The notes below the pieces were generated by a model. The model worked only from the letters and a program-made list of their open reading frames with translations. It was not told the DNA's origin and ran no database searches. Below are positions 36,544-61,618 of a stretch of DNA of 64,000 bases, piece by piece; positions within the stretch are counted from its first letter, which is position 1, and each line of letters begins with the position of its first letter. This DNA comes from Paenibacillaceae bacterium ZCTH02-B3 (GTDB lineage Bacteria > Bacillota > Bacilli > Paenibacillales > Paenibacillaceae): assembly GCA_002159065.1 (NCBI GenBank), contig LZRV01000077.1:12476-76475 (forward strand), given 5' to 3'. The position numbers and the translations under genes were made by a program.

Positions 36544-38406
36544 GTGGAGCGGGCGGATTCCTTCATGATGCTGCGTAGGTATCCTTTCAACAGCCTGAGA
36601 AGCAAGCTCATGGCCCTGTTCGTCATTCTGACCTCGGCGCCGCTCATCGCCGTCGGAATCGTGTCGTACCAGAAATCGTTCCAGACCCTTTCCGATTACA
36701 GCAAAGCCGCCAACGCCCTGGTCGCCGAGAATTTCCTGCGTGAACTCGACATGATGTTTCTCAACGCCAGCCGGCTTCTGGAACTGGAAAGCAACCCGAT
36801 GGTGCGCCGCTTTCTGTTCTCGCAGACCGAGACGTACCCGGAAGCCATGGGAATCCTGCAAACCTTCAAGCTGTACCGGGAAACGTACCAGTTGAATGAA
36901 CTTGTGCTCAACGTCACCCTGGTCAATTTGTACGGAAAGGGGATCAGCGAACGAAAAGGCGTTTTCCAGTTGAATCAGAATCTGCGAAAAGAACCCTACT
37001 TCCAGACGCTGCTGGAACTCCCCGATGAAACCCTTTACGTTCCCCCCTCGTCGGTCCCCTCCGTACCGAAGCTGGATGGGCTGGATTACGGCGGCAAGAA
37101 GACGATTTCCATCATATCCACCATCAAACAGCCCATCACCCACCAAGTGATCGGCTTCATCACCATCGATCTCGACAGCTCGGTGGTGCAAGAATTCAGC
37201 GAAACCAACCGGATCGGCAGAACCGGATATTTCTTCGTGGCCGACAAAAACGGCAAACCCATCTTCATGCCGGAACCGCAAGCGGCCGGCGTCGGTTGGC
37301 TGCCGCCGCTTACGGACGTCGCCCGTTTCGGCGGAACCCGCGGCCAGCTGGTGGACAACAGTCTCGGCATCCCGGTGTTCGTCATCTACACCATTTCCTC
37401 GCAGACCGGCTGGTACATCGTCGGCCAGGTGCCGCTCGCGGAAATTACCCGGGACGCGGTGCAGATCCGCAATCTCATTTTCGCCAGCGCCATCTTAAGC
37501 GTGGTGGTGGCCATTACGCTCTATTTCTATCTCACCAATCGCATGACCCGGCCGATCCAGATTCTGAAGAACAAGATGCGCCTGGCCGCATCCGGATATC
37601 TGGAAGCCAAGGCGCAGATCGGCGGCACCGACGAAATCGCCGATCTCGGCCGAAGCTTCAACACCATGCTGGAACAGATCAAACAGCTGCTCGACCGCAG
37701 CATCGAGGAACAGAAACAGATCCAGCTGGCGGAACTTCGAACCCTGCAGGCGCAGATCAATCCCCATTTTCTGTACAACACCCTGGATTCCATCGTCTGG
37801 ATGGCCGAAGCGCGCAAGCACGATCAAGTCATCCGCCTGGTGCAAGCGCTTTCGCAATTTTTCCGGATCAGCCTGAGCAAAGGAAAGGATGTGATCTCCA
37901 TCGGGGAAGAAATCGATCACATCCGCAACTATCTCATCATCCAGCAAATGCGTTACAGGGACATCCTGAGCTACGACATCCGGGTCGATCCCGGCATCCT
38001 GCATTGCCGGGTGCTGAAAATGACGCTGCAGCCGCTGGTGGAAAACGCGCTTTACCACGGCATCAAAAACAAACGGCGCAAAGGGTTGATCGAGGTTCGG
38101 GGCTGGCGGGACGGACAGGGAGGCATCCTGCTGAAAGTCTCCGACAACGGGATCGGCATGACGCCCGACCGCCTGGACGAAATCCGCCGTTCCCTGTCGG
38201 GCGGCATCGAACCCAGATCCGACAGTCCGGATGAAACCCGCCATCAAGGCTTCGGACTGCGCAACGTGCATCAGCGCATCCGCCTCTATTACGGAGAGCC
38301 CTACGGCCTCCATATTGAAAGCGCGTATATGGAAGGTACGGAAGTCACCTTGCGGATTCCGGACATCGAAGGTGAGGGGCATGAAGAAGATTCTGCTCGT
38401 GGATGA
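36544..38406 (+). CDS. Sensor histidine kinase, YesM-like (2 TM, extracellular domain, HAMP, His_kinase, HATPase_c)
   Basis: H-box LRTLQAQINPHFLYNTLDSI. ATPase motifs ENALYHG, DNGIGM and GFGLRNV. Confidence 0.9.
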   Translation: MERADSFMMLRRYPFNSLRSKLMALFVILTSAPLIAVGIVSYQKSFQTLSDYSKAANALVAENFLRELDMMFLNASRLLELESNPMVRRFLFSQTETYPEAMGILQTFKLYRETYQLNELVLNVTLVNLYGKGISERKGVFQLNQNLRKEPYFQTLLELPDETLYVPPSSVPSVPKLDGLDYGGKKTISIISTIKQPITHQVIGFITIDLDSSVVQEFSETNRIGRTGYFFVADKNGKPIFMPEPQAAGVGWLPPLTDVARFGGTRGQLVDNSLGIPVFVIYTISSQTGWYIVGQVPLAEITRDAVQIRNLIFASAILSVVVAITLYFYLTNRMTRPIQILKNKMRLAASGYLEAKAQIGGTDEIADLGRSFNTMLEQIKQLLDRSIEEQKQIQLAELRTLQAQINPHFLYNTLDSIVWMAEARKHDQVIRLVQALSQFFRISLSKGKDVISIGEEIDHIRNYLIIQQMRYRDILSYDIRVDPGILHCRVLKMTLQPLVENALYHGIKNKRRKGLIEVRGWRDGQGGILLKVSDNGIGMTPDRLDEIRRSLSGGIEPRSDSPDETRHQGFGLRNVHQRIRLYYGEPYGLHIESAYMEGTEVTLRIPDIEGEGHEEDSARG

Positions 38407-40033: not shown

Positions 40034-41006
40034 GCAACGGGGACGGAAACGGCTCGCGGCGCTCCTGGCCGTCCTGGTTCTGGCCGCGGGAACGGGATGC
40101 CAGGGAGGGATGCCGGACACCGCCCTGCCTGGGCCCGGCGACTCTCCCGAGCCGGAACCACCCGCCTACGTGTTCGGCATCATTTACCCTTACGCCCATC
40201 CGCTGTATGAATGGGTGACGAGACAAGCCGAGGAGACCGCCAGGGAGCACCGCGTGAAACTGATGGTGAGGGCGCCGGACGAAGCGCATCTGGAACAGCA
40301 GATCCGCATGATGGAAACCCTGATCAAGGAAGGCGTGGACGGCATCGCCATCGCCCCCGTGGATTCGGACGCCCTCGTCCCGATCATCAATCGCGCCGTC
40401 GAAAGCGGCATTCCCGTCGTCTGTTTCGAATCCGACGCGCCGGACAGCAAGCGGATGGCGTTCATCGGAACCGACAACCTGGAATCCGGGCGCGTGCTGG
40501 CGGACAGGCTGGCGGAAATGCTGGGTGAGGGCGGAATGGTCATCGTGGAGAGCGGCATGAGCCGAATGGAATCGCTGCGGGACCGGCTGGAAGGATTTCT
40601 GACCCGGATCTATGAAACTTCGGACGTCCGGGTGCTGGATGTCCGATACCACGAAGGCGACGACCAGAAAGCGCTGGCCGATCTGGAAATCATGACGGAA
40701 AACCATCCCCATTTCAACGCCCTCATCGCCCTGGATCCCGTTTCCGTTTCCTCCGCCGTTCTTTTCTGGAAGGCCAAAGGGCTCAAACAATATTTGCTGG
40801 CTTTCGGGCTCACGCGGGAGGTATGGGAAGCGGTGAACAACGGGCAGATCACGCATGTCGTTTCGCAGGGCGAATTCCAATGGGGCAAGCGGATCGTCCA
40901 TTCGCTGCTCGCGCTGCAAAGGGGGCGGCAGGCGACCGTTCTTCAGGACACGGGAACCGAATTGTACAGCCGGGATTCGAGGATTGACTGGATGTTTGAG
41001 AATTAG
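40011..41006 (+). CDS. Sugar-binding lipoprotein associated with the two-component system (PBP type I)
   Basis: Lipobox LAAGTGCQ. Contains VDGIAIAPVDSDALVPIINRAVESGIPVVCFESD. It overlaps the RR gene end by 23 nt. Confidence 0.8.
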   Translation: MFRRRRAKQRGRKRLAALLAVLVLAAGTGCQGGMPDTALPGPGDSPEPEPPAYVFGIIYPYAHPLYEWVTRQAEETAREHRVKLMVRAPDEAHLEQQIRMMETLIKEGVDGIAIAPVDSDALVPIINRAVESGIPVVCFESDAPDSKRMAFIGTDNLESGRVLADRLAEMLGEGGMVIVESGMSRMESLRDRLEGFLTRIYETSDVRVLDVRYHEGDDQKALADLEIMTENHPHFNALIALDPVSVSSAVLFWKAKGLKQYLLAFGLTREVWEAVNNGQITHVVSQGEFQWGKRIVHSLLALQRGRQATVLQDTGTELYSRDSRIDWMFEN

Positions 41007-42562
41007 GAGATGTTCTCCCGGTCATCCCCCTTGCCTTCGCGCTTCGCCTGATACATCTTCTTGTCCGCGTGCCACAGGAGCAGGTCGATGGTATCGCCGT
41101 GTTCGGGATACCGGCTGATCCCGATGCTCAGACTGACTTCGTCCATGACCGGCCGGTTCGACATCTTCAGCTGCGCAAAGGCGTCGAGCAGCCGCCCGAC
41201 CCGATCCTCCACGTGGCCTTCATCCGGGTAATCGTCAAGGAATATGACGAATTCGTCTCCGCCGATGCGGGCCGCCATGCCGTCCGTTCCCGCCGTGTCG
41301 CTCATCAGGGCGGCGATCTTCACCAGCGCCTCGTCTCCCGTCTGATGCCCGTAGCGGTCGTTCACCGTCTTGAAGTTGTCGACGTCCACAAGCAGAAGCG
41401 CCAGCGGTTTCCGCCGTTCGGCCGGACGATCCAGCTTTTCCTGCAGCTTTTCCCGGAAGTGCCGGCGGTTCGGCAGTTCCGTAAGCGGATCGTGATAGGC
41501 GAGGTAGGCGATTCGCTTCTGCTGTTCGATGAACGGGGTGGCATCCCGAATGATGACCAGGATGTGCGGATGATGCTCGACGAGGATGTAGCCCGCGTCG
41601 ATCAGGGCGTGGATCGTTTTGCCGCCGCCGGAGATCGTCATCTCATGGTTTCTGACCTCCCGCTGACGTTCCACGAGCTCGCGGAAATTTTCGCCCAGAA
41701 TCGACCACAGATTATCCTGTTTCACGGCATGGGAACCGAACATCTCTTTGGCCCCGGGATTGGCTTCCTTGATGAGGCCGCCCGCATCCGCCAGGAGAAT
41801 CGCGGCCGGGTTGAGATGGAACAGCTTCTCGAATCTCCGGTCCGTAAAATTGAGAAAATCGTATTTCCGCATCGTGCGCCTGAGGAAAAAGAACCACACC
41901 ACGCCGCCGTAAAGATAGGGATACGGCGGAAGGGCGCTGCCGAATTCGATCAGGCCGAAAATGCCGAACCACGCCGCAGCCAGAACCACGCCGATGCCGA
42001 GATGCTTGTAAAGGTCGCGCATTTCCCGGTTCGCCGCCTGCCGTTTACCGATGACGAGCGGGATCAGGTACAGGAGATTGTTGATCACGCACAGCACCAT
42101 GGTGATATAGTAAGGCGTATTGTAGACCGGAAGTTTCCAGAGTCCCGATTCATAAAACCGGGTGACGGAAATGGTGGTGTCGATCCGCAGGAGGTTGATC
42201 ACGACCAGGATGACCGGCAGGTAAAAGATCCAGGGGTACACATACCGGGGCATCTTGCGGTCCAGTTTCGTCAGTTTGACGAAGAGGTGAAATCCGAGTC
42301 CCGGAATCAGGATGCCGGACGTGCTGAACCATACGGCGGCCACCACCGGACTGTATTCAATGGGAAGCTGGTGACGCACGTATTCCGCGAGGAACAGGTT
42401 CATGAAGCAAAGCGAAATCAAGCTGACCAGACGGTGTTCGATTTTCCTCGCGTCGCGGATCAGCATGTCGATGCTCATGAAGGCGAAATACAGGATCGGC
42501 ACGAAGTGGGTCAGCAAAGGGACAAAGACCTGCTGGGGTGTCATCGGGTTCACCGTTTTCAA
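41003..42562 (-). CDS. Membrane-anchored PAS-GGDEF diguanylate cyclase
   Basis: About 7 N-terminal TM helices, then a PAS-like region, then LLLVDVDNFKTVNDRYGHQTGD...RIGGDEFVIFL. The stop codons of this gene and the convergent SBP gene overlap (TTAG). Confidence 0.9.
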   Translation of the reverse strand: MKTVNPMTPQQVFVPLLTHFVPILYFAFMSIDMLIRDARKIEHRLVSLISLCFMNLFLAEYVRHQLPIEYSPVVAAVWFSTSGILIPGLGFHLFVKLTKLDRKMPRYVYPWIFYLPVILVVINLLRIDTTISVTRFYESGLWKLPVYNTPYYITMVLCVINNLLYLIPLVIGKRQAANREMRDLYKHLGIGVVLAAAWFGIFGLIEFGSALPPYPYLYGGVVWFFFLRRTMRKYDFLNFTDRRFEKLFHLNPAAILLADAGGLIKEANPGAKEMFGSHAVKQDNLWSILGENFRELVERQREVRNHEMTISGGGKTIHALIDAGYILVEHHPHILVIIRDATPFIEQQKRIAYLAYHDPLTELPNRRHFREKLQEKLDRPAERRKPLALLLVDVDNFKTVNDRYGHQTGDEALVKIAALMSDTAGTDGMAARIGGDEFVIFLDDYPDEGHVEDRVGRLLDAFAQLKMSNRPVMDEVSLSIGISRYPEHGDTIDLLLWHADKKMYQAKREGKGDDRENIS

Positions 42563-42786
42563 ATTTTTAGCCCATACCTAACAAGTTCGACAAATATCGC
42601 CTTTTCCCTGCGAATTTCGCGCATGACGCGAAAATTCGCCGTTTCCCGTGCCGTTCGTGCGCTTTCGCCTGATGCGCGACTTGAACACGCTCCTCCGCAT
42701 CTGGACTCGGGGGCGGTTCCGGAATACAATAGGATTGTTGCGATACCCCCTGGGGTATAAAAACGAGAGGAAAAGGAGGAAATCCA

Positions 42787-43095
42787 TTGTTCCGGACCGA
42801 ATCGCCCGCCGAAGTGCTGGAGAGGCTGAAACGCAACGAATCTTTCACCCTTCTTGACGTTCGGGAATACGACGAATGGGCGGAGGGACACATTCCGGGC
42901 GCCCTGCACATTCCGCTCCGCGAGCTGCCTTTCCGCCTGGGGGAACTGGACAGGTCGAAAGAGACGGTCGTCGTTTGCCTGAGCGGCGTGCGCAGCGCCC
43001 GGGCGTGCGAGTATCTTGCCTTGTGCGGCTACCGGGCGGTCAACATGGAAGGCGGCATGAAGCGCTGGCCCGGAGACGTCGTCTCCGGGCCGTGA
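42787..43095 (+). CDS. Rhodanese-like single-domain sulfurtransferase
   Basis: Contains LLDVREYDEWAEGHIPGALHIP and the active-site loop VVVCLSGVRSARA. Confidence 0.85.
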   Translation: MFRTESPAEVLERLKRNESFTLLDVREYDEWAEGHIPGALHIPLRELPFRLGELDRSKETVVVCLSGVRSARACEYLALCGYRAVNMEGGMKRWPGDVVSGP

Positions 43096-43107: not shown

Positions 43108-43308
43108 TCAAACGCCATATCGCGCATCGCAGATGGAACACATCGAGTATCCCGGCTTCTTGGGCCTTTTGCCGCACGCTACGCACAAATCCGATTTGGA
43201 CCCCCCGGCGACCTGCTCCAGATCCGATTTGCCAAGCTCCCGGTGATCCGGACGGTGTCCTTCCCGTCCGCCGGCTTCACTCCGCGCGTGAAGGTTTTCC
43301 CGATCCAT
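43108..43308 (-). CDS. Double-glycine leader peptide, four-Cys core (candidate RiPP precursor A)
   Basis: GGAGGAA lies 6 nt before ATG 43308. Leader ...RELGKSDLEQVAGG, core SKSDLCVACGKRPKKPGYSMCSICDARYGV. Confidence 0.6.
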   Translation of the reverse strand: MDRENLHARSEAGGREGHRPDHRELGKSDLEQVAGGSKSDLCVACGKRPKKPGYSMCSICDARYGV

Positions 43309-43450
43309 GCGTCATTCCTCCGTTTCGCTGGTTATGGTCTGCAAGCTTTCATTTCTTCGCGCTGCGTCCTTCCGATCCGCTTCCCGTTTCTCCGGGCCGG
43401 ATCTTCCCGTGTCCGTCTATCGGGCAACTCCGCTTTCCTTGGATGTTGGT

Positions 43451-43663
43451 TCATCCCTGCCGGGATTTCAAATTCACAAGGCATTTGGAGCAAAGATCGA
43501 ACCCCTGGACGGCCACGTTGTCGCAACCCGGGGTCGCGCACGGGTGAACCGATGCGCCGGTGCCGCCGAAAATGAATTCGAGTTCCTCATCGTTCAGTTC
43601 GCGATTCGACAGACCGCGTTCGCCGTCCTTTTCCCGTTCCGGACTGAAGCCTTCCCCGTTCAT
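43451..43663 (-). CDS. Double-glycine leader peptide, four-Cys core (candidate RiPP precursor B)
   Basis: GAAGGAA lies 6 nt before ATG 43663 (Met17 of the track ORF). Leader MNGEGFSPEREKDGERGLSNRELNDEELEFIFGG, core TGASVHPCATPGCDNVAVQGFDLCSKCLVNLKSRQG. Confidence 0.6.
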   Translation of the reverse strand: MNGEGFSPEREKDGERGLSNRELNDEELEFIFGGTGASVHPCATPGCDNVAVQGFDLCSKCLVNLKSRQG

Positions 43664-43701
43664 CTTCCATTCCTTCTTTTTCCTCGTGTTTTGGTATGCC
43701 C

Positions 43702-43745
43702 ATCGTAACATGCCATTTTAAAATGGAGTTTAAATTCCTTTTAAA
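43702..43745 (-). promoter_or_regulatory. Phased-repeat promoter in front of precursor B/A
   Basis: On the minus strand: TTTAAAAggaaTTTAAACtccaTTTTAAA, 9 nt (atggcaTGt), then TACGAT. The 7-mers are exactly 11 bp apart. Confidence 0.6.
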
Positions 43746-43748
43746 TCA

Positions 43749-44462
43749 TTATAAAATTTCCATCCGGTATCCGATGCCCCTGACGTTCTGGATGACGGAC
43801 AAATTCGAGACTTGCAGGATTTTTTTGCGCAGGGTGCTGATATGCACCGCCACCGTGCGAAAATCGTCCAGGCCGTCGTAGCCCCACACGATGCGGTAGA
43901 TTTCTTCGGGCTGAAAGACACGCTTCGGATTTTCCGCCAGCAGGACAAGCACCTTGAACTCTTTCGTGGTCAGTTGCACCGGGCGGCCTTCGACTTCCAC
44001 GGTGCAGCTTTCCAGATCGATGGTGAGCGGACCCAGCCGGATGACGCTTTTGGTTTCCTGGGCCGCCGCCAGCTCCTTCTTGCGTTTGATCAACAGGCTG
44101 CGGCGCAGGTGCGCCTTGACCCTGGCCACCACTTCCCCCTGGCTGTAAGGCTTGCTGATATAGTCGTCGGCTCCCGCCATGAGCCCCATGATCTTGTCCA
44201 TCTCGGAACATTTCGCGCTGATCATGAGAATCGGCACGTCCGTCAGCTTGCGCAATTCCTGGCAGATCATGACGCCATCGCCGTCCGGCAGGATCGCTTC
44301 CATGAGAATGAGATCCGGGGGATTGTCCCGCGCGCTCCGCAAGGCCGCGTCCGCCGAATGGCAGCCGGTGACGCGGTATCCGTCCGACTGAAGCGCCGTG
44401 CCGATCTCCCGACGAACCGCTTCATCGGGATCGGCGATCAGGATGAGGGGTTGCCCTTGCAT
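43749..44462 (-). CDS. OmpR/PhoB-family response regulator, orphan and atypical (Glu at the phospho-acceptor position)
   Basis: The REC domain reads LILIADPDE...PDLILMEAILPDGDG...ILMISAK...ISKP. The winged-helix output reads LTTKEFKVLVLLAENPKRVF...VRGIGYRM. The start is taken at ATG 44462. The TTG at 44534 lies too close to a TATAAT at 44555-44550. Confidence 0.85.
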   Translation of the reverse strand: MQGQPLILIADPDEAVRREIGTALQSDGYRVTGCHSADAALRSARDNPPDLILMEAILPDGDGVMICQELRKLTDVPILMISAKCSEMDKIMGLMAGADDYISKPYSQGEVVARVKAHLRRSLLIKRKKELAAAQETKSVIRLGPLTIDLESCTVEVEGRPVQLTTKEFKVLVLLAENPKRVFQPEEIYRIVWGYDGLDDFRTVAVHISTLRKKILQVSNLSVIQNVRGIGYRMEIL

Positions 44463-44613
44463 CGGGAAACGGTCTCCTTTACCTCGGTTTTCGGCCATAC
44501 CCATACGATACGAGACATTTCGCTCTATTCGCAAGATTCGTTACTTTCCATTATAATCCGGGAAGGAAAAAAATCTATTCAAACCCAGTTTTTTAGCGGG
44601 GATGGTTTGAAAT

Positions 44614-44668
44614 TTTAAACAGAATTTAAACTTGATTTAAACCAGTTTTGAATGTTGTGTGGTATCTT
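44614..44668 (+). promoter_or_regulatory. Phased-repeat promoter in front of the three plus-strand Nif11-type precursor genes
   Basis: TTTAAACagaaTTTAAACttgaTTTAAACcagtTTTGAAT with 7-mers at 44614, 44625, 44636 and 44647. This is followed by 9 nt (gttgtgTGg) and then TATCTT (44663-44668). Confidence 0.65.
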
Positions 44669-44751
44669 TTGATCACAACGAACGAACGATTCTTCCGTGA
44701 ATCCATATCCGTTCGATCACATCCGCCTAATCTCAAAGGAGGGAATTCCCA

Positions 44752-45093
44752 ATGTCGCTCACAAACGCGCAAGCCTGGTTGGAAAAGGTTCGGACCGACC
44801 CCGATCTTCAGGCCAAAATCCGGGAACTGGCCCCCGAACAGCCGGACCGGATTCTGGACGCCCTCGTGGCCGCCGGTGCGGAGGCCGGTTACGCGTTCGG
44901 CAAGGAAGATTTGCTGCAAGCCGCCAAAGAGGCGGTATCTTCCGCCGCCGGGAGCCCGGACGAGCTGGACGAAGAACAGCTGGAGCTGGTGGCCGGCGGC
45001 GACGATACGATCCTGTACGTTTTAGGGTCCATTATCACGGCGGGAATTGGATGTGCCATGCTTGGCTTGAAGCATGCCATCAAAGGTTCCTGA
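44752..45093 (+). CDS. Nif11-type leader peptide precursor 1
   Basis: RBS GGAGGG. Leader MSLTNAQAWLEKVRTDPDLQAKIRELA...EEQLELVAGG, core DDTILYVLGSIITAGIGCAMLGLKHAIKGS. Confidence 0.85.
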   Translation: MSLTNAQAWLEKVRTDPDLQAKIRELAPEQPDRILDALVAAGAEAGYAFGKEDLLQAAKEAVSSAAGSPDELDEEQLELVAGGDDTILYVLGSIITAGIGCAMLGLKHAIKGS

Positions 45094-45172
45094 AAAGAAA
45101 CCCGCGTCAGGGGACCCGGGTACCCCTTCATCCCTCGAATCAACACCCCTAAATTGACTGGGAGGAGATCCA

Positions 45173-45562
45173 ATGTCGTTGGAAAGCGCTCAAGCCTGGT
45201 TGGAAAAGGTCCGGGCCGACTCCGAGCTTAAGGCCAAAATCCTGGAACCGGCCGCCGGACAGCCGGACCGGATTCTGGACGCCCTCGTCGCCGCCGGTTC
45301 GGAGGCCGGTTACACATTCAGCAAGGATGATCTGTTGCAAGCCGTCAAAGAGGCCGTTTCCGAAATCGTCGCCAGGCGAACGGACGGCCTGGACGAAACG
45401 CAGCTGGAATCGGTGGCCGGCGGCGTTTCGGAGGACGTCATTGCGTACTCCTTTGGATCGTTTGGCTTCGGATGTCTCGTATCGTGGCTTCAGGGCTGCG
45501 ATCTTGAAGAAGAAGCGAAAAAAGCGAATAGACCGCCCGGTCCCTATGATCCTTCCTACTGA
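45173..45562 (+). CDS. Nif11-type leader peptide precursor 2
   Basis: RBS GGAGGAG. Leader MSLESAQAWLEKVRADSELKAKI...ETQLESVAGG, core VSEDVIAYSFGSFGFGCLVSWLQGCDLEEEAKKANRPPGPYDPSY. Confidence 0.85.
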   Translation: MSLESAQAWLEKVRADSELKAKILEPAAGQPDRILDALVAAGSEAGYTFSKDDLLQAVKEAVSEIVARRTDGLDETQLESVAGGVSEDVIAYSFGSFGFGCLVSWLQGCDLEEEAKKANRPPGPYDPSY

Positions 45563-45686
45563 CGATTCGTTCGCCTGCAGGCGATTCACCCTTGCGGGCT
45601 CTTCTCGCGCCGCCGGTTCGGTTTTGCTTTCGGCTCCGGGTCCGTTCGGCGCACTTCATCCAACACAAAGACGGGGAGGGATGACC

Positions 45687-46034
45687 ATGTCTGTAGAAAA
45701 TGTCAAGTCGTTCCTGGAAAAAGTGCGGTCCGACTCCGGCTTGCAAAGCCGCATCGGCTCCCTGGCGTCGGACAAGCCGGTTGACGCGAAGGAGGATTGG
45801 TTCCTGGACAGCCTGGTCGCCATCGGCGCGGAGTCCGGCTTTGCGTTCAGCAGGGAGGATTTGCTGCAGGCCGCCAATGAGATCAGGCATAACGCGGTTT
45901 CCGGCGAACTGGACGACGCCCAGCTGGAATCGGTGTCCGGCGGTCTCGATCTCTTCTGGCATATTGTGTTTTCTTTTGCCGTCTTTGGATGCATAGCCGT
46001 AGAAATTGTGGAATGGGGCGAGAAATTGGAATAA
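45687..46034 (+). CDS. Nif11-type leader peptide precursor 3
   Basis: GGGGAGGG lies upstream. The start is ATG 45687 (MSVENVKSFLEKVRSD...), with 45681 as an alternative. The leader ends DAQLESVSGG and the core is LDLFWHIVFSFAVFGCIAVEIVEWGEKLE. Confidence 0.85.
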   Translation: MSVENVKSFLEKVRSDSGLQSRIGSLASDKPVDAKEDWFLDSLVAIGAESGFAFSREDLLQAANEIRHNAVSGELDDAQLESVSGGLDLFWHIVFSFAVFGCIAVEIVEWGEKLE

Positions 46035-46061
46035 CAAGAATCGGAAAAGCCGTACCGGCGT

Positions 46062-47582
46062 TCAGCCTTCCGTTCTGATCCGGATCCGCCCTTCGCTCCC
46101 GTAATCGACAGACCCTTTTTCCCGCGTCAGTTTCTTTGCATATTGAATCAAGGCGTCGGTCAGGACCCCCGCGTCTTCGTCGACGACCCTGCCTTCAAAC
46201 CGGTATCCGTCGCCGCCCGTGCCAAGGAAATCCGGCACGGCGACCCGGTAGACCCGATCCGGATCGACGGGCTGCCCGCCAATGGCAAGCTCCGCGGACC
46301 TGAACGCGCCGGACCCGTCGGTCACGATGACGTAATGCAGGCCCGACGTCTGCAGGTCGACCCGGTTTCTGCCCTGACGCGTATACGAGTATTCGATCAC
46401 GTCCCGCAGGGCTTTGCCGGTCATTTCCACGATCATCACCCGGTTCTGGAACGGCTCGATCCGATGGATGTCGCCCACGGTCATGTCGCCCGGCGCGATC
46501 TCGTTGCGGATGCCGCCGTTGTTCGTGAAGGCGATCTCCGCGTTGTACGCGTCGCGCATGGCGTCCGTCCAGAAATTGCCGACGGGGACGTCTTTTTCAT
46601 ATAATCCTTCCGCGGACAATCCGGTCGCGGTGCGGCCGATGACTTCGCTCAGGAAGGCTTCCAGTTCCTTCTTGTAGCCTTCCGCCTTATCCCGCACCGC
46701 CGCATCGGTTTCCTTGAGTTCTGCCGTCGGCTGCAGCCGGCTGTCCGCAAGTTTCGTTTGTCCGGTCGCGCGATCCAGTTCCAGCTTCACAACGCCGATG
46801 TATCGCAGATCGGCGCCGGCCCGCACGATGGGCGTGCCGTTCACCACTTCGGGACCGCCCGGCGGAGTTTCCCCGCTGCCGCTCACGATCAGGTCGAACA
46901 GGTCGAACCGCTCGGCGAGCCGGCGGTCTTCCTCATCGCCGATGTGCGTGAGCGCGATCAGGATATCCGCCTCGCCGCGCAGGCTGGCGAAACGCTCCAC
47001 GGTGGAGGCGTAATCCCGGAATTCCAGGCCGACGATCCCGCTCCGGCGCGTCTCCGGAGGCGCCTCGGTGATCCCGAGCACGCCGACCTTCACGCCGTCG
47101 AATTCAAACAGGGCATAGGGCTGCGGCTGCCTGATGGGGATCGAAGGGTCCGCCACCTCCATATTGGCGCTGAGCCACGGAAAACGGGAGTCGGCCATGT
47201 TGCGGGCGAACTGTTCCTGTCCGTAGTCAAAATCGAGATTGCCCACCGTCATGGCGTCGAGCCCGGCATCGTTCATCAGATCGATCATGGGCTTGCCTCG
47301 CAGGATGTCCACCACGGGATTGCCTTTGAACATGTCCCCCGCGTCCAGGTACAGCGCGGGACCGGCGGCCTTCGCGTCTTTGACGAAGCGGGCCAGTTGG
47401 CCCGCCGGATCGACGTTGCCGTGCATGTTCGCGGTGTGCAGGACGGTCAGGGTAAAGCGGCCGTTTTTCCCCTCCTCTTCCGGCGATGCTTCGCGGTCCT
47501 TTGGGGCGCAGGCCGCGGCCCCCGGGACTAGCAGGGTTGCGACAAGGGCGACGAGGAACCATTTTCGCGACATGCGTTTCAT
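46062..47582 (-). CDS. Bifunctional metallophosphatase/5'-nucleotidase-like lipoprotein (UshA/YfkN family)
   Basis: Signal peptide and lipobox MKRMSRKWFLVALVATLLVPGAAACA. Motifs include TVLHTANMHGNV, DAGDMFKGN and GNLDFDYG, plus a C-terminal nucleotidase domain. The start is taken at 47582. Confidence 0.8.
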   Translation of the reverse strand: MKRMSRKWFLVALVATLLVPGAAACAPKDREASPEEEGKNGRFTLTVLHTANMHGNVDPAGQLARFVKDAKAAGPALYLDAGDMFKGNPVVDILRGKPMIDLMNDAGLDAMTVGNLDFDYGQEQFARNMADSRFPWLSANMEVADPSIPIRQPQPYALFEFDGVKVGVLGITEAPPETRRSGIVGLEFRDYASTVERFASLRGEADILIALTHIGDEEDRRLAERFDLFDLIVSGSGETPPGGPEVVNGTPIVRAGADLRYIGVVKLELDRATGQTKLADSRLQPTAELKETDAAVRDKAEGYKKELEAFLSEVIGRTATGLSAEGLYEKDVPVGNFWTDAMRDAYNAEIAFTNNGGIRNEIAPGDMTVGDIHRIEPFQNRVMIVEMTGKALRDVIEYSYTRQGRNRVDLQTSGLHYVIVTDGSGAFRSAELAIGGQPVDPDRVYRVAVPDFLGTGGDGYRFEGRVVDEDAGVLTDALIQYAKKLTREKGSVDYGSEGRIRIRTEG

Positions 47583-47610
47583 CCCATCCTTTGTTTGTTT
47601 CGAGTCCGGA

Positions 47611-48750
47611 TTATCCATCGGTTTTCGTCTCATCGGCCAGCCGGCGGAATCCTTCATCGTCGGCCAATTCCTCCAGCGTGAACCGCGAGAGCGTCAGGAT
47701 GAGCCGCGCCTTCTCCTCATGGGAGAGCTTCCCGCCGGGAAACCGGCGGTTCCATTTTTCCAGCCGCCGGGCGGCTTCGACGACCAGCCCTTGCAAAATG
47801 GCGAAGGCGCCGTCGGACAGCGTTCCCCGGTACTGGTGAATCCGTCCGTCCGGACGGCAGTCCGGGTAGCGTTCCAGGCCGAGGAAACGCAGGAACCACT
47901 CCGCCCGGTATTCGCCCGCCGCGACGATGATCGCGACGAAGTCGGCAATCAGCTCGTCGAGCAGCCGGGTGCGCATCGCGCCGAGCACGCGCCGGGTGAA
48001 ATAGTGGACGGATTCGTGTTCCAGGCGGATGGCCAGCGACAGCATCCGCCATTCGTGCTCCGGAAGCCCCATTTCCGCCGCGCCGACCTTGCTGTAGGGT
48101 CCGTCGGTCACGATGGCAAAGCGGTCCAGGTACAGTTCCTTCGGGAGCTCTCCCCCTTCACCCGATGGTTCCCGCCCGTCCCGGTGCCGTTTCAGCCGGT
48201 CCCAATTGCGATAGCCGGATATCAGGCAGGCGCCCATGGTGTCGGGGATCGGTTCCGGTTCGTTTCTCCGGACCAGGGCCTGGACCAATGCGACGAAATC
48301 GCTCCGCTCGCGGACGACGATGACAGGCAGGTGTCCGGCCGGCGTCGGGTGAAAAATCAGCTCGAGGCTGTCCGGGCTTCGCAGGATGAGTCCCGTCGCT
48401 TCGGGTATGCCCCGGGGATTTGCGCCCTGGCGGGTCACCGCCTGGTAGGCGGCCGTCGAGCTCATGCCTTCCCGGACCGGAAACCGCAGCTGGACCAGCT
48501 TCTCCTTCAGCACGGGAAACACGCCGGTCCCCCGGGCTTCCTCCGCGTAGCGCCGCCAGTCGGCGACAAACGGCTCGTCGTCCAGCGGATACTTCTGCGG
48601 AGGCGGATGCGCAAACACGTTGTCATTGTAGGCAAGCAGTTCTTCCGCTACCCGCCCGGTCGCGCCGAAGCGCGCGAGCACTTCCCTTCGAAGCGTGATC
48701 GGATCCACGGCCGCCTCCGGTTTGAGAAGATTTTCGCGCGACGTGCACAT
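47611..48750 (-). CDS. Uncharacterised 379-aa protein with an HExxH motif, encoded 4 nt after lanM
   Basis: The start is taken at ATG 48750, because Met1 of the track ORF lies inside lanM. HESVH is encoded at 48004-48018 within LAIRLEHESVHYFTRRVL. I recognise no family. Confidence 0.7.
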   Translation of the reverse strand: MCTSRENLLKPEAAVDPITLRREVLARFGATGRVAEELLAYNDNVFAHPPPQKYPLDDEPFVADWRRYAEEARGTGVFPVLKEKLVQLRFPVREGMSSTAAYQAVTRQGANPRGIPEATGLILRSPDSLELIFHPTPAGHLPVIVVRERSDFVALVQALVRRNEPEPIPDTMGACLISGYRNWDRLKRHRDGREPSGEGGELPKELYLDRFAIVTDGPYSKVGAAEMGLPEHEWRMLSLAIRLEHESVHYFTRRVLGAMRTRLLDELIADFVAIIVAAGEYRAEWFLRFLGLERYPDCRPDGRIHQYRGTLSDGAFAILQGLVVEAARRLEKWNRRFPGGKLSHEEKARLILTLSRFTLEELADDEGFRRLADETKTDG

Positions 48751-48754
48751 GTTC

Positions 48755-51700
48755 CTATCGCAATACACTTTGGATTTCCGCGGGAGCCGCGCACCGCAGC
48801 AAGGTATAGCCGATCCCCGAGATCCCCTGGAAAAAGGACGGATTGAACCAGGCGCCCCCGTCGCCCCCGTGAAGCAGATAGTGCCCGTTTCTCCGCTTGC
48901 GGGCGATGACCGCCCCCGCTTTCCGCCTTGCTTCCTCCAGCAGATCCGGCCGGCCAAGCGCAAGCGATGCCTCGACGAGAAAGTCGATTTTGCCCGCGTT
49001 GCCGCAGCAGACGTGGTCGTTCATTTCCAGCGTGCACGTGCGGGCAAATTCCACCGCGTTTTCGACGTCCCGCATGAACCGCCGGCGCAAGTTCCGTTCC
49101 CCGTCTTCCCCGCTTGCTGCGGCTTCCGCCTCTGTCCCGGCTTCGACGCCTGTTCCGGTTTGCGCGCTTTTTCCGGCATTCCCGCCGTCCGCGCCGGCGG
49201 TCAGCATGGCAATGCGGGCCAATCCGACGCCGGGAGCGCCGCTGCACCAGCCCGGCATGAACGCCGCACCGCCGCCCGCCGCCTGTACGGCCTTCTCGCG
49301 CAAATCCGGCCAATTGCCATGCTTTTCGTCATACAGGCTGTTTTCATAATCCACCGCTTCCATGGCCGCGTCCCGAAACGCCCGTTCTCCCGTCGCCCGC
49401 CACAGGCGGTACAGGGCGGCGGCATAGCCGGCCGCGCCGTGACCCATCCCCGTGAGAGGTTCCGGGGCGATTCCGGTGGTCCAGACCCGGTGGCCCGACT
49501 TCGCCCGCACCCGGGATTTCAGCAAATGTTCGCCGCACCGTTTCGCCAGATCGAGGAGATCGCCGCTCTTTTCGGAGCGGTGCAGATCGAGGAGCACCAG
49601 GATGAGGCCTGCCGCCCCGCCGAGCACGTCCAGCCAGCGGTCGCCGTCGATCTGTTCCGGCCGGATCCGGCGCACAAGCCACAGGGCGGCTTCCGTCAGG
49701 CCGGGTTCTCCCAGATAATCGCCCATGACCGCCAGACCCCTGACGATGCCCGCCAGGCCGCTTCCCAGTCCCAGGGGCATCCGGTACGCCGGGAACGGAT
49801 GATCCCGGTCGTTCAGGCTTTTCAGCAAAGGATTCAAGGCCTGGAGGACCGTTTCCCGGATCGCTTCCTTCCCCGTCAGCCGGTACAGGGCGGCCATGAA
49901 CACGCCCAGGCCGGCCAGTCCGTCGTAGAAGCCGAAGCCGATCCGGCCGAGGGTCATTTTTTGGGCCTGCAAATGATACTGCCGCACGATCCACGTGAAA
50001 TCCCCGTCCGCTCCCACGATCCGCCTGGCCATGATTTCCTCGCAGATGCCGGCGGCTTCCCCGATCAGAAGTTCGTCGCCCGGATCTTCCGGTTCCGCCG
50101 GGACGCGGAATTTGTCCGGCCTCTGGTTACGAGTCCGCTCCGGCGTCCGGCCCGGCGTCGGGTCCGGCAGCCGGTCCGGGGGCTGTTCCGAAGTCCGGTC
50201 CGGGGGCCGCTCCCCCGCCGCATGGGACGGCTCCGAGGCCATGGACAGGGCCGTCCTGATGAGATCGATCTGCGCGTTTTTGTCCCGTTCGTCCATGCGC
50301 CGGATCAGGGCTTTCGCCCGGTCGAAGGCGCTTTCGAGAAAATAGCCCGGATGAAGCGTCCCGCTTCCGTCCTCGAGGGCCAGATTCCGCGCGTGCCCGT
50401 AAAAGATCGGGACGTCCCGGTTTTCCAGCGCGTCCCGCTCCGCGCAAAACACCTTCCACAGCTCCCGCAGCCCGTCGTCGGGCGCCGCGATCAGGTAGGC
50501 CGGAGCCAGGCGTTCCACTTCGAAGGAATAGAGCAGTCCGTCGCGGAGAAACCCGGGCTGGGCGGCATGGTTCAGCACATCGGCATAAACTTGCGAGTTC
50601 CGGATCAGGATGCGGAACCGGCACGTTCCGAAAGCGTCGAGCGGCGACGTTTCCCCCGCGTGTTCTCCCAGGATCCGGGGCTTCTCCCCGGCGATCCGGT
50701 CGTAAGCCCACGCGAATCCGGCCAGCAGATGCTCCTCGTAATCCCGCACATCCAGCGGCCGGCCGTCCAGAACGGGCAGATGGAGACCGCGCTCTTCCCG
50801 GCAGGTGAGCGCCCCCCAGTCCGCCGCCTTCCCCTGGGCGTTCACGTGCCAGTACGGCAGCATGCCGACGCGCAGGACCGAATCGCCAAGGGTATCGAGG
50901 GCCAGATCGGCCGCGCTTTTGCCGCTTTCCCCCAGATGGAACGGTTTCACCCGGTGCAGAAGCAGCGTTTCCAGATCGACGGGGACGGGATGGGCGCCGC
51001 TGGCGATCAGGTTTTCGAAATGAAAGTCGTTTCCGCCCAGCGCGTAGATCGTGCCGAGGAGAACACCGGCCCGGAAATAGAAGGCCGCGGCGTCCTCTGG
51101 CCGCGTGAGCGGCCTTCGCTCCACGAATTCCGCCCAGCCGTGGTCTCCCTCGTCCAGCACCCGGGGCGTCCACAGCCGGTGGGGAATTCCGTCCCGTTCC
51201 AGGAAGCGGATCCATTCGTTCCAGGCGGCGTCAATGGCCAGGCTCCTGGGCTTGTAAACGAGTCTCAGGCCGGATTCGAAGGCGAGAAGAAGAACGGTTT
51301 TGCCCCCGTTGTGGACATCGGACGCGTTCGCCTCCACCGCGGTTACCCGCCCAAGCGGCCTGCCTTCGTGAAACGCCTCTTCCAGCTTCATCTGGTCCGC
51401 CGCGAGGCGGGCGGCGAATTCCGCCAGATTCCTCTTCCATTGGCCGATCGCCTGCACCATGAACCGGGCGAGGACGGGATGCTCCGCCAGCACGTCCTTC
51501 CATTTTCCCGCCGCAAGTTCCGCCAAATACGCTTTCCATTCCGCCTGCCACTCCTCGTGGAAGAACGAGGGTCCAAGCAGGAGATGCAGCGGTTTTTTGC
51601 CGCTCATGGCCGCCAGAAAACCGGCGCGGCACGTCCGGAAACTAAGCGTTGCCAGCCGCTTGGCCAGCGCCCTGCGCATGTCCCGTACGGCGGAATCGGC

Positions 51701-52156
51701 GAACAACCGGAGTTTCTCCCCAAGCCTTCCGGCCAGCTGCTCGCAGGCATCCTCCAGAAACGGCTCCAGGGCCGGGGTCGGATCCCACAACCCTTGGCCT
51801 TCTTCCGGCGGCGAAGCGGACATCCGCTGAAGCCGCGACAAGATGCGCTCCAGTTCCCGCACCCATTCGGGAAGGGGCGTTTCCGCCTTCCAACGCACGG
51901 GGCCGAGCAGCCGTCCGGCCTCGTCCGGCGAAAGTCCGTCCAGGGCGAGGCGTTTGCGAAACGCCGTCTCTCCGCCGCTTCCGCCGGCTTTTTTCCGCCA
52001 GCGGGCAAACAGGTCCTCACGGACCCCGGGCGGCGCCTCCCCGATCTCGACGGACCCCGCCCGCGACAGTTCCAGCCGTTCTTTGAGAAACAGCGCCCTG
52101 CCGGCGATTTCGCGCCATTCGTTCTCCGTGAACACGGCCATTCTAGACACCCGCAT
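48755..52156 (-). CDS. lanM: Class II lanthipeptide synthetase LanM (dehydratase + LanC-like cyclase), ProcM-like CCG type
   Basis: 1133 aa. The dehydratase motif is GGNDFHFENLIASGAHPVPVDLETL. The cyclase motifs are GMGHGAAGY, GWCSGAPGVG and VCCGNAGKIDF. The start may be Met6 (52141). Confidence 0.9.
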   Translation of the reverse strand: MRVSRMAVFTENEWREIAGRALFLKERLELSRAGSVEIGEAPPGVREDLFARWRKKAGGSGGETAFRKRLALDGLSPDEAGRLLGPVRWKAETPLPEWVRELERILSRLQRMSASPPEEGQGLWDPTPALEPFLEDACEQLAGRLGEKLRLFADSAVRDMRRALAKRLATLSFRTCRAGFLAAMSGKKPLHLLLGPSFFHEEWQAEWKAYLAELAAGKWKDVLAEHPVLARFMVQAIGQWKRNLAEFAARLAADQMKLEEAFHEGRPLGRVTAVEANASDVHNGGKTVLLLAFESGLRLVYKPRSLAIDAAWNEWIRFLERDGIPHRLWTPRVLDEGDHGWAEFVERRPLTRPEDAAAFYFRAGVLLGTIYALGGNDFHFENLIASGAHPVPVDLETLLLHRVKPFHLGESGKSAADLALDTLGDSVLRVGMLPYWHVNAQGKAADWGALTCREERGLHLPVLDGRPLDVRDYEEHLLAGFAWAYDRIAGEKPRILGEHAGETSPLDAFGTCRFRILIRNSQVYADVLNHAAQPGFLRDGLLYSFEVERLAPAYLIAAPDDGLRELWKVFCAERDALENRDVPIFYGHARNLALEDGSGTLHPGYFLESAFDRAKALIRRMDERDKNAQIDLIRTALSMASEPSHAAGERPPDRTSEQPPDRLPDPTPGRTPERTRNQRPDKFRVPAEPEDPGDELLIGEAAGICEEIMARRIVGADGDFTWIVRQYHLQAQKMTLGRIGFGFYDGLAGLGVFMAALYRLTGKEAIRETVLQALNPLLKSLNDRDHPFPAYRMPLGLGSGLAGIVRGLAVMGDYLGEPGLTEAALWLVRRIRPEQIDGDRWLDVLGGAAGLILVLLDLHRSEKSGDLLDLAKRCGEHLLKSRVRAKSGHRVWTTGIAPEPLTGMGHGAAGYAAALYRLWRATGERAFRDAAMEAVDYENSLYDEKHGNWPDLREKAVQAAGGGAAFMPGWCSGAPGVGLARIAMLTAGADGGNAGKSAQTGTGVEAGTEAEAAASGEDGERNLRRRFMRDVENAVEFARTCTLEMNDHVCCGNAGKIDFLVEASLALGRPDLLEEARRKAGAVIARKRRNGHYLLHGGDGGAWFNPSFFQGISGIGYTLLRCAAPAEIQSVLR

Positions 52157-53294
52157 CCAGGTACTCGAACTTGCCGCCCGTCACCTTCTTCAGCACGACG
52201 AGGTCGCCGATGTCCTCCCCGTTCCGGTCGAAGGTGTGGAACCCGGCGACGCCTTCCCAGTTTTCGATGGTATGAAGGGCAGCCGCGATGTCGCGGGGGA
52301 CGATCGACCGGGCCCGGTTCATGGCCTCGGCCAGCAGGTGGACGGCGTCATACCCCTGCGCGGAATATTGGGTCGGCATGGTGCCGTAAGCCCTGTTGAA
52401 AACATCGATGAACGCCTTCACCTTTTCCCGCCGGCTTTCGGGGTTGAAGAAGGCGCCGATCACCATGCCTTCCGCGGCCTTCGCCCCGGCGATGCTCCAC
52501 AGGTTCGGCGTGTCCATGGCGTTCCCCGCGAACAGCGGAACCCCGATGCCGGCCGCCCGCAGCTCCGCGACGAGCTGCGCGCCCGCCGCGCCCGACTTGG
52601 CGATGAAGATCCCGTCGTACTCCAGGATCTCCCATTTGAACTTGAGCCGCTCCAGTTCCGACGGTCCGGTATAGAAGGTCAGGCGGTCCACAATGTCGAT
52701 GCCGGAACGGCCCGCGTGTTTTTCAAAGGCGTCCGCCAGCCCCTTCCCATAGGCGTCGTCGTCGTACAGGATGACCATCCGGCGGTGTCCGTTCCGGGCG
52801 GCGTAGTTGGCCACGGAGGCGGCCACCTGCTCGTCGCTGGCGATGTTGCGGAACACGAGCCGCTGCTTCTCGCTGATGAATTCGGGAGCGCTGGAAGCGG
52901 GAGACAGCATGAGGATGCCGGCCCGTTCATAGATGGAGGAAACCGGAATGGACACGTAGGAATTCCGATGCCCGATCACGGCCACCACCTGGATGTCCTC
53001 CGAGAAAGACTGGGCGATTTCCAGCCCTTTCGTCACCGAGGATTCGTCGTCCTTGATAATGACGTTCAGCTGGCGCCCCAGCACCCCGCCGTCGGCGTTG
53101 AGTTCCGACACGGCAAGGGCAACGCCTTCCAGGAACCAGTCGTTGGCGGCGGAGATGGGCCAGGCCACTCCGATCGAAATGGGACCCCTGTGGCGCTTGG
53201 CGAAGGCTTCGCGCTCTTGCGCCGTGGATGCGACCGAGCAACCGGCAACGGCCATCGCCAGCAAGAGGAGGATGGCAATCGGCAAGCGTCTCAT
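52143..53294 (-). CDS. LivJ-like (Peripla_BP_6) ligand-binding lipoprotein
   Basis: GAAAGGAGAT lies upstream of ATG 53294. Lipobox LLAMAVAGCS. Contains ISIGVAWPISAANDWFLEGVALAVSELNADGGVLGRQL. It overlaps the annotated lanM start by 14 nt. Confidence 0.85.
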   Translation of the reverse strand: MRRLPIAILLLLAMAVAGCSVASTAQEREAFAKRHRGPISIGVAWPISAANDWFLEGVALAVSELNADGGVLGRQLNVIIKDDESSVTKGLEIAQSFSEDIQVVAVIGHRNSYVSIPVSSIYERAGILMLSPASSAPEFISEKQRLVFRNIASDEQVAASVANYAARNGHRRMVILYDDDAYGKGLADAFEKHAGRSGIDIVDRLTFYTGPSELERLKFKWEILEYDGIFIAKSGAAGAQLVAELRAAGIGVPLFAGNAMDTPNLWSIAGAKAAEGMVIGAFFNPESRREKVKAFIDVFNRAYGTMPTQYSAQGYDAVHLLAEAMNRARSIVPRDIAAALHTIENWEGVAGFHTFDRNGEDIGDLVVLKKVTGGKFEYLDAGV

Positions 53295-54583
53295 GCTTTG
53301 ATCTCCTTTCCAACCCGCACGGGACGGGACGCCTTGACCGCGGAACCATTGACGAGAATGGTCGACGCGCAGGCCAAATGCACGTTCAGCATCGTCAGGA
53401 TCGGGTCGACGATGGGCGTGACCGCGAGCAGCAGCACCACCGCCGTTTCCGAAGGAAGCCCCAGCGGCGCCAGAATGATGCCGATCATCGACAGCGAGAC
53501 GAGGGCGGGAGCCCCCGCGCCCGAGAGAGCGGCCAGGATGGAAGCCAGGAGGACCGTCGCGATTTGCCCCGGGCCCAAGGGCACGCCATACAGCTGGGCC
53601 ACAAAGATCGTCCCGACGGAAAACATCGTCACCATGCTGTACCGGCAAAGGATGATGCTCAGGGGAGTCACGAAATTGACCGTTTTCTCCTCCAGCCGGT
53701 AACGCGCGCGCAGCGCCTGGAAGATGAACGGCAGCGTCGCCAGGCTGTTGCGGGTGCCGAAGGCGATGAGCAGCGGCTGTTTGAGGTCCGCCGTCGACCG
53801 CACCAACGAACGCCCGGTCAGCTTCCAGATCAGAACCGCGCTCAGGAGCAGGATGATCAGGCACGCGAGATGGATCAGGACGATGAATTTCGTCATGGCC
53901 GCCAGCAAATCCATTCCCATCGACGCGAACTGGCCGGCCATCAGGCAGAGCAGCCCGACGGGCAGTCCGTAGATGCTCCAGCCGATGATCCGCTCGAAAG
54001 CCTTGTAGATCACCTCGATGACGTCCAGGACGTCGTCCCGCTTTTTCTCGCGGACGGTACCGATGGCCACGCCGAACACCATGGCCACGAACAGCACCTG
54101 CAGGTTCTGTTCGCCGAGCAGCGATTCGAACAGGTTGGTCGGGATGATCATGGCCAGAAAATCCATCACCGTAAAGGCGCCCTGCGTTCCGGACTGGCCG
54201 CTGACCATCGCCTCTCCGCCCATGATCGCGTTTCCCAGCACTTCCCGCGCGCGCTGATCCAGGCCGGTCCCCGGATTACCGATCAGCCCCACGCCGACGC
54301 CGATGAGGCTGACCAGCAGCAGGCCGGTGGCGAAGGTCAGCACCGTCCGCTTCAGGTAACGCACCGCCTCCCGCGAAGCCATGAGCTTGCCCAGGCTGGA
54401 GATGATGGCCGTCACCATGATGGGAACGACCAGCATTTTTAAAAAGGAAAGATACAATTCCCCGACGGGGGCGATAAACAGGGCGACATTCCGATCGTAG
54501 AGCCCCAGCAGAATGCCGATCGCCATCGCGGCCAGGGACGTGCCGGGCCGCTTGAGCCATTCCAGTTTCGCCATGGGTTTCAC
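53291..54583 (-). CDS. Dicarboxylate/amino acid:cation symporter (DAACS / SDF family)
   Basis: 430 aa. Contains LYLSFLKMLVVPIMVTAIISSLGKL and TRNSLATLPF plus a SxS-type reentrant-loop region. It has 4-nt overlaps with both neighbouring genes. Confidence 0.85.
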   Translation of the reverse strand: MKPMAKLEWLKRPGTSLAAMAIGILLGLYDRNVALFIAPVGELYLSFLKMLVVPIMVTAIISSLGKLMASREAVRYLKRTVLTFATGLLLVSLIGVGVGLIGNPGTGLDQRAREVLGNAIMGGEAMVSGQSGTQGAFTVMDFLAMIIPTNLFESLLGEQNLQVLFVAMVFGVAIGTVREKKRDDVLDVIEVIYKAFERIIGWSIYGLPVGLLCLMAGQFASMGMDLLAAMTKFIVLIHLACLIILLLSAVLIWKLTGRSLVRSTADLKQPLLIAFGTRNSLATLPFIFQALRARYRLEEKTVNFVTPLSIILCRYSMVTMFSVGTIFVAQLYGVPLGPGQIATVLLASILAALSGAGAPALVSLSMIGIILAPLGLPSETAVVLLLAVTPIVDPILTMLNVHLACASTILVNGSAVKASRPVRVGKEIKA

Positions 54584-55512: not shown

Positions 55513-55526
55513 GCGCTCCCCCTCTG

Positions 55527-58187: not shown

Positions 58188-58210
58188 CTGCCGTTCCCCT
58201 TCCCGGAGCG

Positions 58211-60367: not shown

Positions 60368-60384
60368 TGCGGAACGCACCCGCC

Positions 60385-61574: not shown

Positions 61575-61618
61575 TTCTTAGCACTCCAACCTAAAGTTCA
61601 ACTAAAATTTACATTAAA
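61575..61618 (-). promoter_or_regulatory. Phased-repeat promoter for the export-lanM operon
   Basis: On the minus strand: TTTAATGtaaaTTTTAGTtgaaCTTTAGG, 9 nt (ttggagTGc), then TAAGAA (61580-61575). It lies about 230 nt upstream of the HlyD start. Confidence 0.5.

Follow-up and report, generated by a model that had tools for sequence, protein, structure and literature searches.

Phased (T/C)TTWAA arrays before the genes of a class II lanthipeptide cluster and an adjacent aspartate-less OmpR-family regulator predicted to read them

The 64-kb stretch of DNA analysed here (64,000 nucleotides, hereafter the window) belongs to an uncultured thermophilic compost bacterium represented by the metagenome-assembled genome Paenibacillaceae bacterium ZCTH02-B3. 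Between 43.1 and 62.6 kb, it carries a class II lanthipeptide cluster with five Nif11-leader precursors, two Cys-rich peptides and a single LanM. Four repeat arrays, termed sites a to d, lie upstream of the genes of this cluster, which are arranged as follows:

43108-43308, minus strand: peptide A, with a double-glycine leader and a CxxC...CxxC core, downstream of site b
43451-43663, minus strand: peptide B, with the same leader and core type, downstream of site b
43749-44462, minus strand: OmpR-family regulator with a Glu receiver (OUM99157.1, annotated as hypothetical), the proposed binder of the repeats
44752-45093, plus strand: Nif11-leader precursor 1, downstream of site a
45173-45562, plus strand: Nif11-leader precursor 2, downstream of site a
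about 45681-46034, plus strand: Nif11-leader precursor 3, downstream of site a
46062-61344, minus strand: contiguous row of same-strand genes, downstream of site d
61766-62128, minus strand: Nif11-leader precursor 4, downstream of site c
62239-62574, minus strand: Nif11-leader precursor 5, downstream of site c; the pair of precursors 4 and 5 adjoins groEL

Read from 61344 to 46062, the same-strand row encodes HlyD, a C39-peptidase ABC exporter, a second ABC transporter, two solute-binding proteins, an SDF symporter, LanM (48755-52156), a DUF7005 protein and a 5'-nucleotidase; going by gene order only, we infer that the row from HlyD to the 5'-nucleotidase forms one operon. Peptides A and B matched no Pfam or NCBIfam family, and a search of 5.8 billion proteins with peptide B returned only two matches, near-identical to it. 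The core of precursor 5, TGSISQDEIDGHSYILQAAVRLGFAPFKG, follows a Nif11 leader and a GG site and has no cysteine, so it cannot form a lanthionine ring by itself.

The four arrays share one layout, in which 7-bp units recur with an 11-bp period and are followed by a 9-nt spacer and a -10-like hexamer:

44614-44668, plus strand: site a, with four units (TTTAAAC at 44614, 44625 and 44636, then TTTGAAT at 44647), spacer gttgtgTGg (44654-44662) and hexamer TATCTT (44663-44668); precedes Nif11 precursors 1-3
43702-43756, minus strand: site b, with four units (TTTTATA at 43756-43750, TTTAAAA at 43745, TTTAAAC at 43734 and TTTTAAA at 43723), spacer atggcaTGt and hexamer TACGAT (43707-43702); precedes peptides B and A
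62617-62671, minus strand: site c, with four units (TTTAAAT at 62671, TTTTATA at 62660, TTTTAAC at 62649 and CTTTAAC at 62638), spacer atagcgTGt and hexamer TATTGT (62622-62617); precedes precursor 5
61575-61618, minus strand: site d, with three degenerate units (TTTAATG at 61618, TTTTAGT at 61607 and CTTTAGG at 61596), spacer ttggagTGc and the weak hexamer TAAGAA (61580-61575); precedes the hlyD-lanT-ABC-...-lanM operon

The four strings given for these sites in a preliminary description of the locus are all in the window, letter for letter and on the strands indicated, and their placement before precursors 1-3, peptides B and A, precursor 5 and the export-lanM row holds. The 11-bp phasing and the distance of 9 nt from the last 7-mer to the -10 hexamer are likewise exact at all four sites, and 11 bp was the best lag at each of them when lags of 7-15 bp were compared. 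Three points of that description stood in part. The rule that the hexamer reads TAnnnT applies at sites a, b and c and fails at site d (TAAGAA). The proposed 7-bp repeat unit keeps its 11-bp period, but its seventh position carries 0.07 bits, and the informative unit in the aligned promoters is the hexamer (T/C)TTWAA, in which T2, T3 and A5 are nearly invariant. Site b, described with three repeats, does contain them, but also has a fourth, distal unit (43756-43750) that overlaps the stop codon of the regulator gene.

No -35 element had been evident, and a consensus scan agreed, returning no -35/-10 pair in the right orientation at any of the four sites. The -10 hexamers themselves are poor, with 3-4 of 6 matches to TATAAT, and a TG lies one base 5' of the hexamer (TGn) at all four window sites, which is the pattern of an extended -10 with predicted promoter function. 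Because TTTAAA is palindromic, the arrays are oriented by their degenerate units and by their constant spacing from the -10 hexamer; the array can alternatively be read as AA-N5-TTT boxes one turn apart. Taken singly, site d is the weakest of the four.

Site c probably serves precursor 4 besides precursor 5, and the gap between the two genes held no significant terminator (RNA fold z -1.3). The segment 62139-62203 was considered as a separate site for precursor 4 and rejected on its geometry: 17 bp separate TTTTAAC from TTTAAGA, and the distance to TATGGA is 11 nt. The earlier proposal that all precursor genes are co-activated holds only on condition that precursors 4 and 5 share a transcript. 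For precursor 1, the 5' leader gave no evidence of an attenuator (RNA fold z -0.8).

A further promoter-like stretch lies before the regulator gene. Upstream of site a, at 44528-44557 on the plus strand, there is a sigma-70-like TTCGCA-18-TATAAT; since it is not conserved in the related loci L001 or L004 (described below), we did not adopt it as the precursor promoter. Its ATTATAAT is palindromic and could equally act on the minus strand, as a -10 for the regulator gene, where TTTGAAT-agat-TTTTTTC precedes it at 10 nt. Read in this direction, TTTGAAT-agat-TTTTTTC-N10-TATAAT is a possible autoregulatory site that is weak, has a 10-nt spacer and is likewise not conserved in L001 or L004.

The four arrays scored well beyond chance expectation. 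Within the window, the pattern of three TTTWAA-N5 units with at most 3 mismatches had no matches other than sites a, b and c and a highly AT-rich spot at about 14.6 kb, with 0 expected from whole-window shuffles. To avoid circularity, the scan matrix used to rank all 127,944 window positions was built from non-window loci only; it placed site b at rank 3, site a at rank 6 and site c at rank 8, with the ranks above them taken by shifted registers or the opposite strand of those same sites, and site d at rank 19. Each 60-bp segment was also shuffled locally with its dinucleotides kept (3000 trials per site), and the observed score was reached in 0/3000 shuffles for site a, 1/3000 for site b, 0/3000 for site c and 40/3000 for site d. 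Fourteen window positions reached the threshold, 13 of them within the four sites. In control DNA from unrelated loci, 302,559 bases in all (35-71% GC), no triple did; several of these loci contain ordinary OmpR-family regulators, and some are of 35-36% GC.

The four sites are 60-73% A+T in a window of 61% G+C, and the array was absent from about 10 other AT-rich intergenic segments of the window. The concern raised in the preliminary description, that the motif might be a common feature of AT-rich intergenic DNA, was therefore not borne out in the window or in the 302 kb of control DNA; for the host genome, the scan covers the 64-kb window. The sole place outside the cluster that scored with the repeat matrix, at 14484-14643, consists of 160 bp of nearly pure A+T in which TTATATAA-type palindromes recur, located just 5' of a gene starting at about 14638. 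Its geometry is wrong, and it may be the operator of another regulator.

The gene beside sites a and b encodes a protein with Response_reg (PF00072, 2.2e-23) and Trans_reg_C (PF00486, 7.3e-23) domains, and the Pfam scan found only these two, without a bacterial transcriptional activation domain. The protein aligned over its full length with the structures of BaeR, PrrA and RegX3. In this alignment, the phospho-acceptor Asp is replaced by Glu (DLILMEA in the regulator vs DLILLD in BaeR and PrrA) and the acidic DD pocket is degenerate, its second Asp being lost (ADPDE), while the switch residues of the receiver are retained, namely the Ser in ILMISAK and the Lys in YISKP. The description of this neighbour as an atypical OmpR-type regulator is thereby confirmed. 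[quoted passage not shown] We found no partner kinase beside the regulator and no kinase gene among the cluster genes at 43108-62574; the nearest kinase (36544-38406) pairs with an AraC-type regulator. Given the Glu at the phospho-site and the lack of a partner kinase nearby, the regulator probably needs no phosphorylation.

The regulator scored below the cut-off of every named NCBIfam equivalog (PhoB TIGR02154, 177.7 vs 296.2 bits), an exact look-up of protein P0001 gave no record, and a genome scan for its relatives returned generic OmpR proteins only, at 26-39% identity, with no named close relative. Among 5.8 billion proteins, its clade comprises six 90% clusters: five further clusters at 49-96% identity join that of the regulator, followed by an abrupt drop to generic regulators at about 44%. 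In a search with a clade profile, these six clusters scored 402-452 bits and the next protein 269 bits, and no members beyond the six were found. Glu occupies the phospho-site in 9/9 clade sequences, and the other retrieved response regulators have Asp wherever the site was readable (159 by pattern, plus those checked by eye). Judged by sequence, the regulator is thus part of a small, isolated clade of aspartate-less (pseudo-receiver) OmpR-family regulators.

Every readable member of this clade (49-86% identical to the regulator, from genomes of 39-62% GC) sits in a lanthipeptide-type locus:

L001-L003, regulator 86% identical: fully syntenic with the window
L004-L007, regulator 85% identical: Nif11 precursor, regulator and CxxC peptide
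L011, regulator 63% identical: regulator, CxxC peptide and Nif11 precursor
L008, regulator 52% identical, 39% G+C: regulator, Nif11-like peptide and LanC-like protein
L009/L010, Salibacterium sp. K-3, regulator 49% identical, 44% G+C: regulator, LanM, Nif11 precursor, solute-binding protein and C39 exporter

None of these related loci has a kinase beside the regulator. When L001-L011 (1.4-21 kb each) were scanned with a matrix built from the window alone, the best matches adjoined the regulator and lay upstream of Nif11 precursors, the CxxC peptide or LanC-like/biosynthesis genes. Within each locus, the array was found only beside the regulator gene, the top arrays kept the 11-bp phase and the 9 nt to a TAnnnT hexamer, and no other DNA-binding protein was common to the clade loci. 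This co-occurrence across clade loci supports the link between the regulator and the motif.

Fourteen promoters could be aligned on their -10 hexamers, the orthologous ones among them being only partly independent of one another. In 14/14, a run of three to five units with the 11-bp period is followed by the 9-nt distance, and the hexamer has TA at positions 1-2 in 14/14 and T at position 6 in 13/14, with TGn in 12/14. Between orthologous promoters, the unit cores are 78-100% identical vs 45-65% for position 7 and the spacers. Orthologues of site a (in L001 and L004) keep the units, the spacing, a TGc and the hexamer TATGCT, and those of site b (in L001, L004 and L011) keep TACGAT and the units, with spacers 45% identical. 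The comparison with orthologues covers sites a, b and d.

Two further loci, L027 and L029, came from a metagenome scan with HlyD (89-90% identical). Their only strong array match is the orthologue of site d, before the hlyD operon and with the hexamer TATGGT, and the deviant units of site d are conserved in both (TTTAATG, YTTTAGT and YTTTAGG). That the deviations are themselves conserved suggests that site d is weaker by design. A more distant HlyD relative (L030, 42% identical, 36% GC) has no array, indicating that the motif does not simply follow exporter genes. In the gap between site d and hlyD, at 61503-61444 on the minus strand, the window also holds a 19-codon remnant (VEQIKGFPQKALENDEFRK*) of a Nif11-like ORF, which is intact in L027 (5746-5949) and there encodes 67 aa with no obvious core peptide.

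The clade loci offered further observations on gene content. CxxC peptides lie directly 3' of the Glu-type regulator in four lineages (window, 43108-43663, minus strand; L002, 10843-11302; L004, 1516-1734; L011, 942-1169). A PAS-GGDEF diguanylate cyclase and a small rhodanese lie beside the regulator/peptide module at 41003-43095 in the window, 11315-13388 in L001 and 1995-4069 in L004, and the conservation of this neighbourhood in these relatives, the two closest, may reflect a functional link, perhaps through c-di-GMP input. The DUF7005 gene (47611-48963, minus strand), which in the window separates lanM from the 5'-nucleotidase gene, has no counterpart in L001-L003, although these loci are otherwise syntenic.

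The general rule on which the preliminary description drew, that OmpR/PhoB-family activators bind 11-bp repeats that replace the -35 element, is in the literature (PMC4971064, PMC11825685, PMC10936776), and its interpretation of the locus agreed with the sequence data wherever these could test it. We consider it likely that sites a to d make up one small regulon of sigma-A promoters that depend on an activator, the adjacent OmpR/PhoB-type protein, which would bind in place of the -35, independently of a kinase. The three or four (T/C)TTWAA units, lying on one helix face, would be tandem sites for the winged-helix domain of the regulator, and two head-to-tail dimers (a tetramer) per promoter would cover roughly -60 to -22. 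With the hexamer at -12 to -7, the proximal unit would span about -28 to -22 and the following one -39 to -33, at the position of the -35, and the distal units would reach to about -61. The two proximal protomers would then replace the missing -35 and touch RNA polymerase through sigma region 4, the beta flap and the alpha subunits, and the TGn of the extended -10 would aid the weak hexamer. Transcription is predicted to start near 44675 (plus strand) and near 43695, 62610 and 61568 (minus strand). The regulator would be active once made, without need of phosphorylation, so that control of the cluster would lie with the amount of regulator, or with a ligand or partner. Binding, the number of protomers, activation, transcription starts, operon limits and constitutive activity are what we infer from these features.

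The same geometry might serve repression, if the TGn and the -10 were self-sufficient and the adjacent regulator, bound to the repeats from -60 to -22, blocked RNA polymerase. Extended -10 promoters can work without a -35, and the TGn that could substitute for it is present at all four window sites. OmpR/PhoB-family proteins can repress too, and a PhoP repression complex has been described (PMC11825685). However, hexamers with 3-4 of 6 matches to TATAAT are poor candidates for self-sufficient promoters, and the invariant 9-nt distance in 14 promoters points to a stereospecific contact with polymerase, which simple occlusion would not need and which argues for activation rather than occlusion. 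The geometry also fits the activators PhoB and SARP (PMC10936776), and overall we regard a repressor role as unlikely.

We find it very unlikely that the neighbouring regulator is unrelated to the arrays and that another DNA-binding protein encoded elsewhere, ComK-like or nucleoid-associated, reads the phased A/T units. ComK boxes have the form A4-N5-T4, which the AA-N5-TTT reading of the array resembles, and our view of the host genome spans 64 kb, leaving room for such a protein. Yet the array accompanies the Glu-type regulator in genomes that range from 39 to 62% GC and appears only beside that gene in each locus, no further DNA-binding protein is common to these loci, and control loci with ordinary OmpR-family regulators lack the array. 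It is scarcely credible that no specific protein is involved and that the phased A/T runs are structural (curved or UP-like) or arose by chance in AT-rich intergenic DNA. The high A+T content of the sites in a 61% G+C genome and the scoring of the unrelated AT-rich region at 14.5-14.6 kb would agree with this explanation, but local shuffles that keep composition almost never recreated the arrays, about 10 other AT-rich intergenic segments of the window lack them, the 302 kb of control DNA gave zero matches even with its 35-36% GC loci, and T2, T3 and A5 hardly vary where the spacers have diverged. A central TpA step also sets TTTAAA apart from a classical bending A-tract.

The predicted reading of the array by an activator has close parallels in PhoB of E. 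coli, PhoP of B. subtilis and M. tuberculosis, and GlnR, in which an OmpR/PhoB winged helix recognizes 11-bp direct repeats that overlap or replace the -35. The PhoB box consists of two repeats of 7 bp, plus 4 bp (PMC4971064); in M. tuberculosis, PhoP binds as tandem dimers, tetramers or hexamers, displaces the contact of sigma R4 with the -35 and interacts with the beta flap, sigma R4 and the alpha subunits (PMC11825685); and GlnR, an orphan atypical regulator, is cited in PMC11825685 as a tetramer on four sites, arranged like PhoP. In these systems, tandem dimers recognize arrays of two to six units, as we propose for the sites described here, and about 9-10 bp separate the proximal unit from the -10 (PMC4971064, PMC11825685). 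In contrast, the unit at our sites is (T/C)TTWAA rather than CTGTCAT, TTHACA or a GlnR box, Glu takes the place of the phospho-Asp, and the predicted targets are those of a lanthipeptide cluster instead of phosphate or nitrogen genes. With its score below the equivalog cut-off and its different predicted box, the regulator is not PhoB.

The comparison with SARPs (AfsR, ActII-ORF4, DnrI) concerns mode of action. Like them, the regulator is predicted to be a pathway-specific activator encoded inside its own cluster, with an OmpR-type DNA-binding domain and no phosphorylation, that reads direct repeats of which the 3'-most one keeps a constant, short spacing to the -10. SARP repeats are 11 or 22 bp apart, and the 3' repeat lies 8 bp from the -10 (PMC10936776); the distance at our sites is 9 nt from the end of the 7-mer and 10 from the informative hexamer. 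Unlike SARPs, the regulator has a pseudo-receiver at its N-terminus, its host belongs to the Bacillota and not the actinomycetes, and its units are AT-rich. Lacking an activation domain, it is not a SARP, though it would work like one as a phosphorylation-independent activator.

Within lantibiotic clusters, an OmpR-family regulator is reported to drive several promoters through a short repeated box near the -35. The regulator resembles SpaR/NisR with the spa-box in this respect, being encoded within the cluster and predicted to act on several cluster promoters through a repeated box. Both SpaR and NisR receive their phosphate from LanK, a kinase that responds to the mature peptide; in contrast, the cluster described here has no kinase, its regulator has no phosphorylatable Asp, and the box has another sequence. 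In its receiver, the regulator resembles CmrT of C. difficile and AtvR, which also combine an OmpR output domain with Glu at the phospho-site, the loss of one DD residue and retention of T/S and K. Glu receivers of the CmrT/AtvR type have been inferred to be active without a kinase (PMC12548384, PMC4395418, PMC12632262). However, the sequences are only distantly related and the targets differ, and CmrT is embedded in a two-component operon, whereas the regulator described here stands alone.

This kind of mechanism is familiar and should not surprise specialists. The regulator clade and its DNA code, on the other hand, are undescribed in the literature searched, in which we found no description of the clade, its box or motif, or the ZCTH02-B3 cluster. 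We further considered, as a speculative and unlikely extension, that the Glu-type regulator, together with its TTTWAA code, is a complete switch in itself, free of a kinase and mobile along with Nif11/LanM clusters. It would be set by feedback from the double-glycine CxxC peptides, which always lie immediately 3' of it and would be controlled by it, or by c-di-GMP from the GGDEF-PAS neighbour; if true, a peptide- or c-di-GMP-set switch without a kinase would be a type of signalling that has not been described in RiPP clusters. For an uncultured thermophile such as this, a one-protein, kinase-free switch with a readable DNA code could provide a handle to turn on the whole cluster in a heterologous host, and the TTTWAA code could serve as a search key for related clusters. 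Finally, as a natural Asp-to-Glu OmpR-family regulator with clearly predicted targets, this protein would be a convenient case for learning how pseudo-receivers are controlled.
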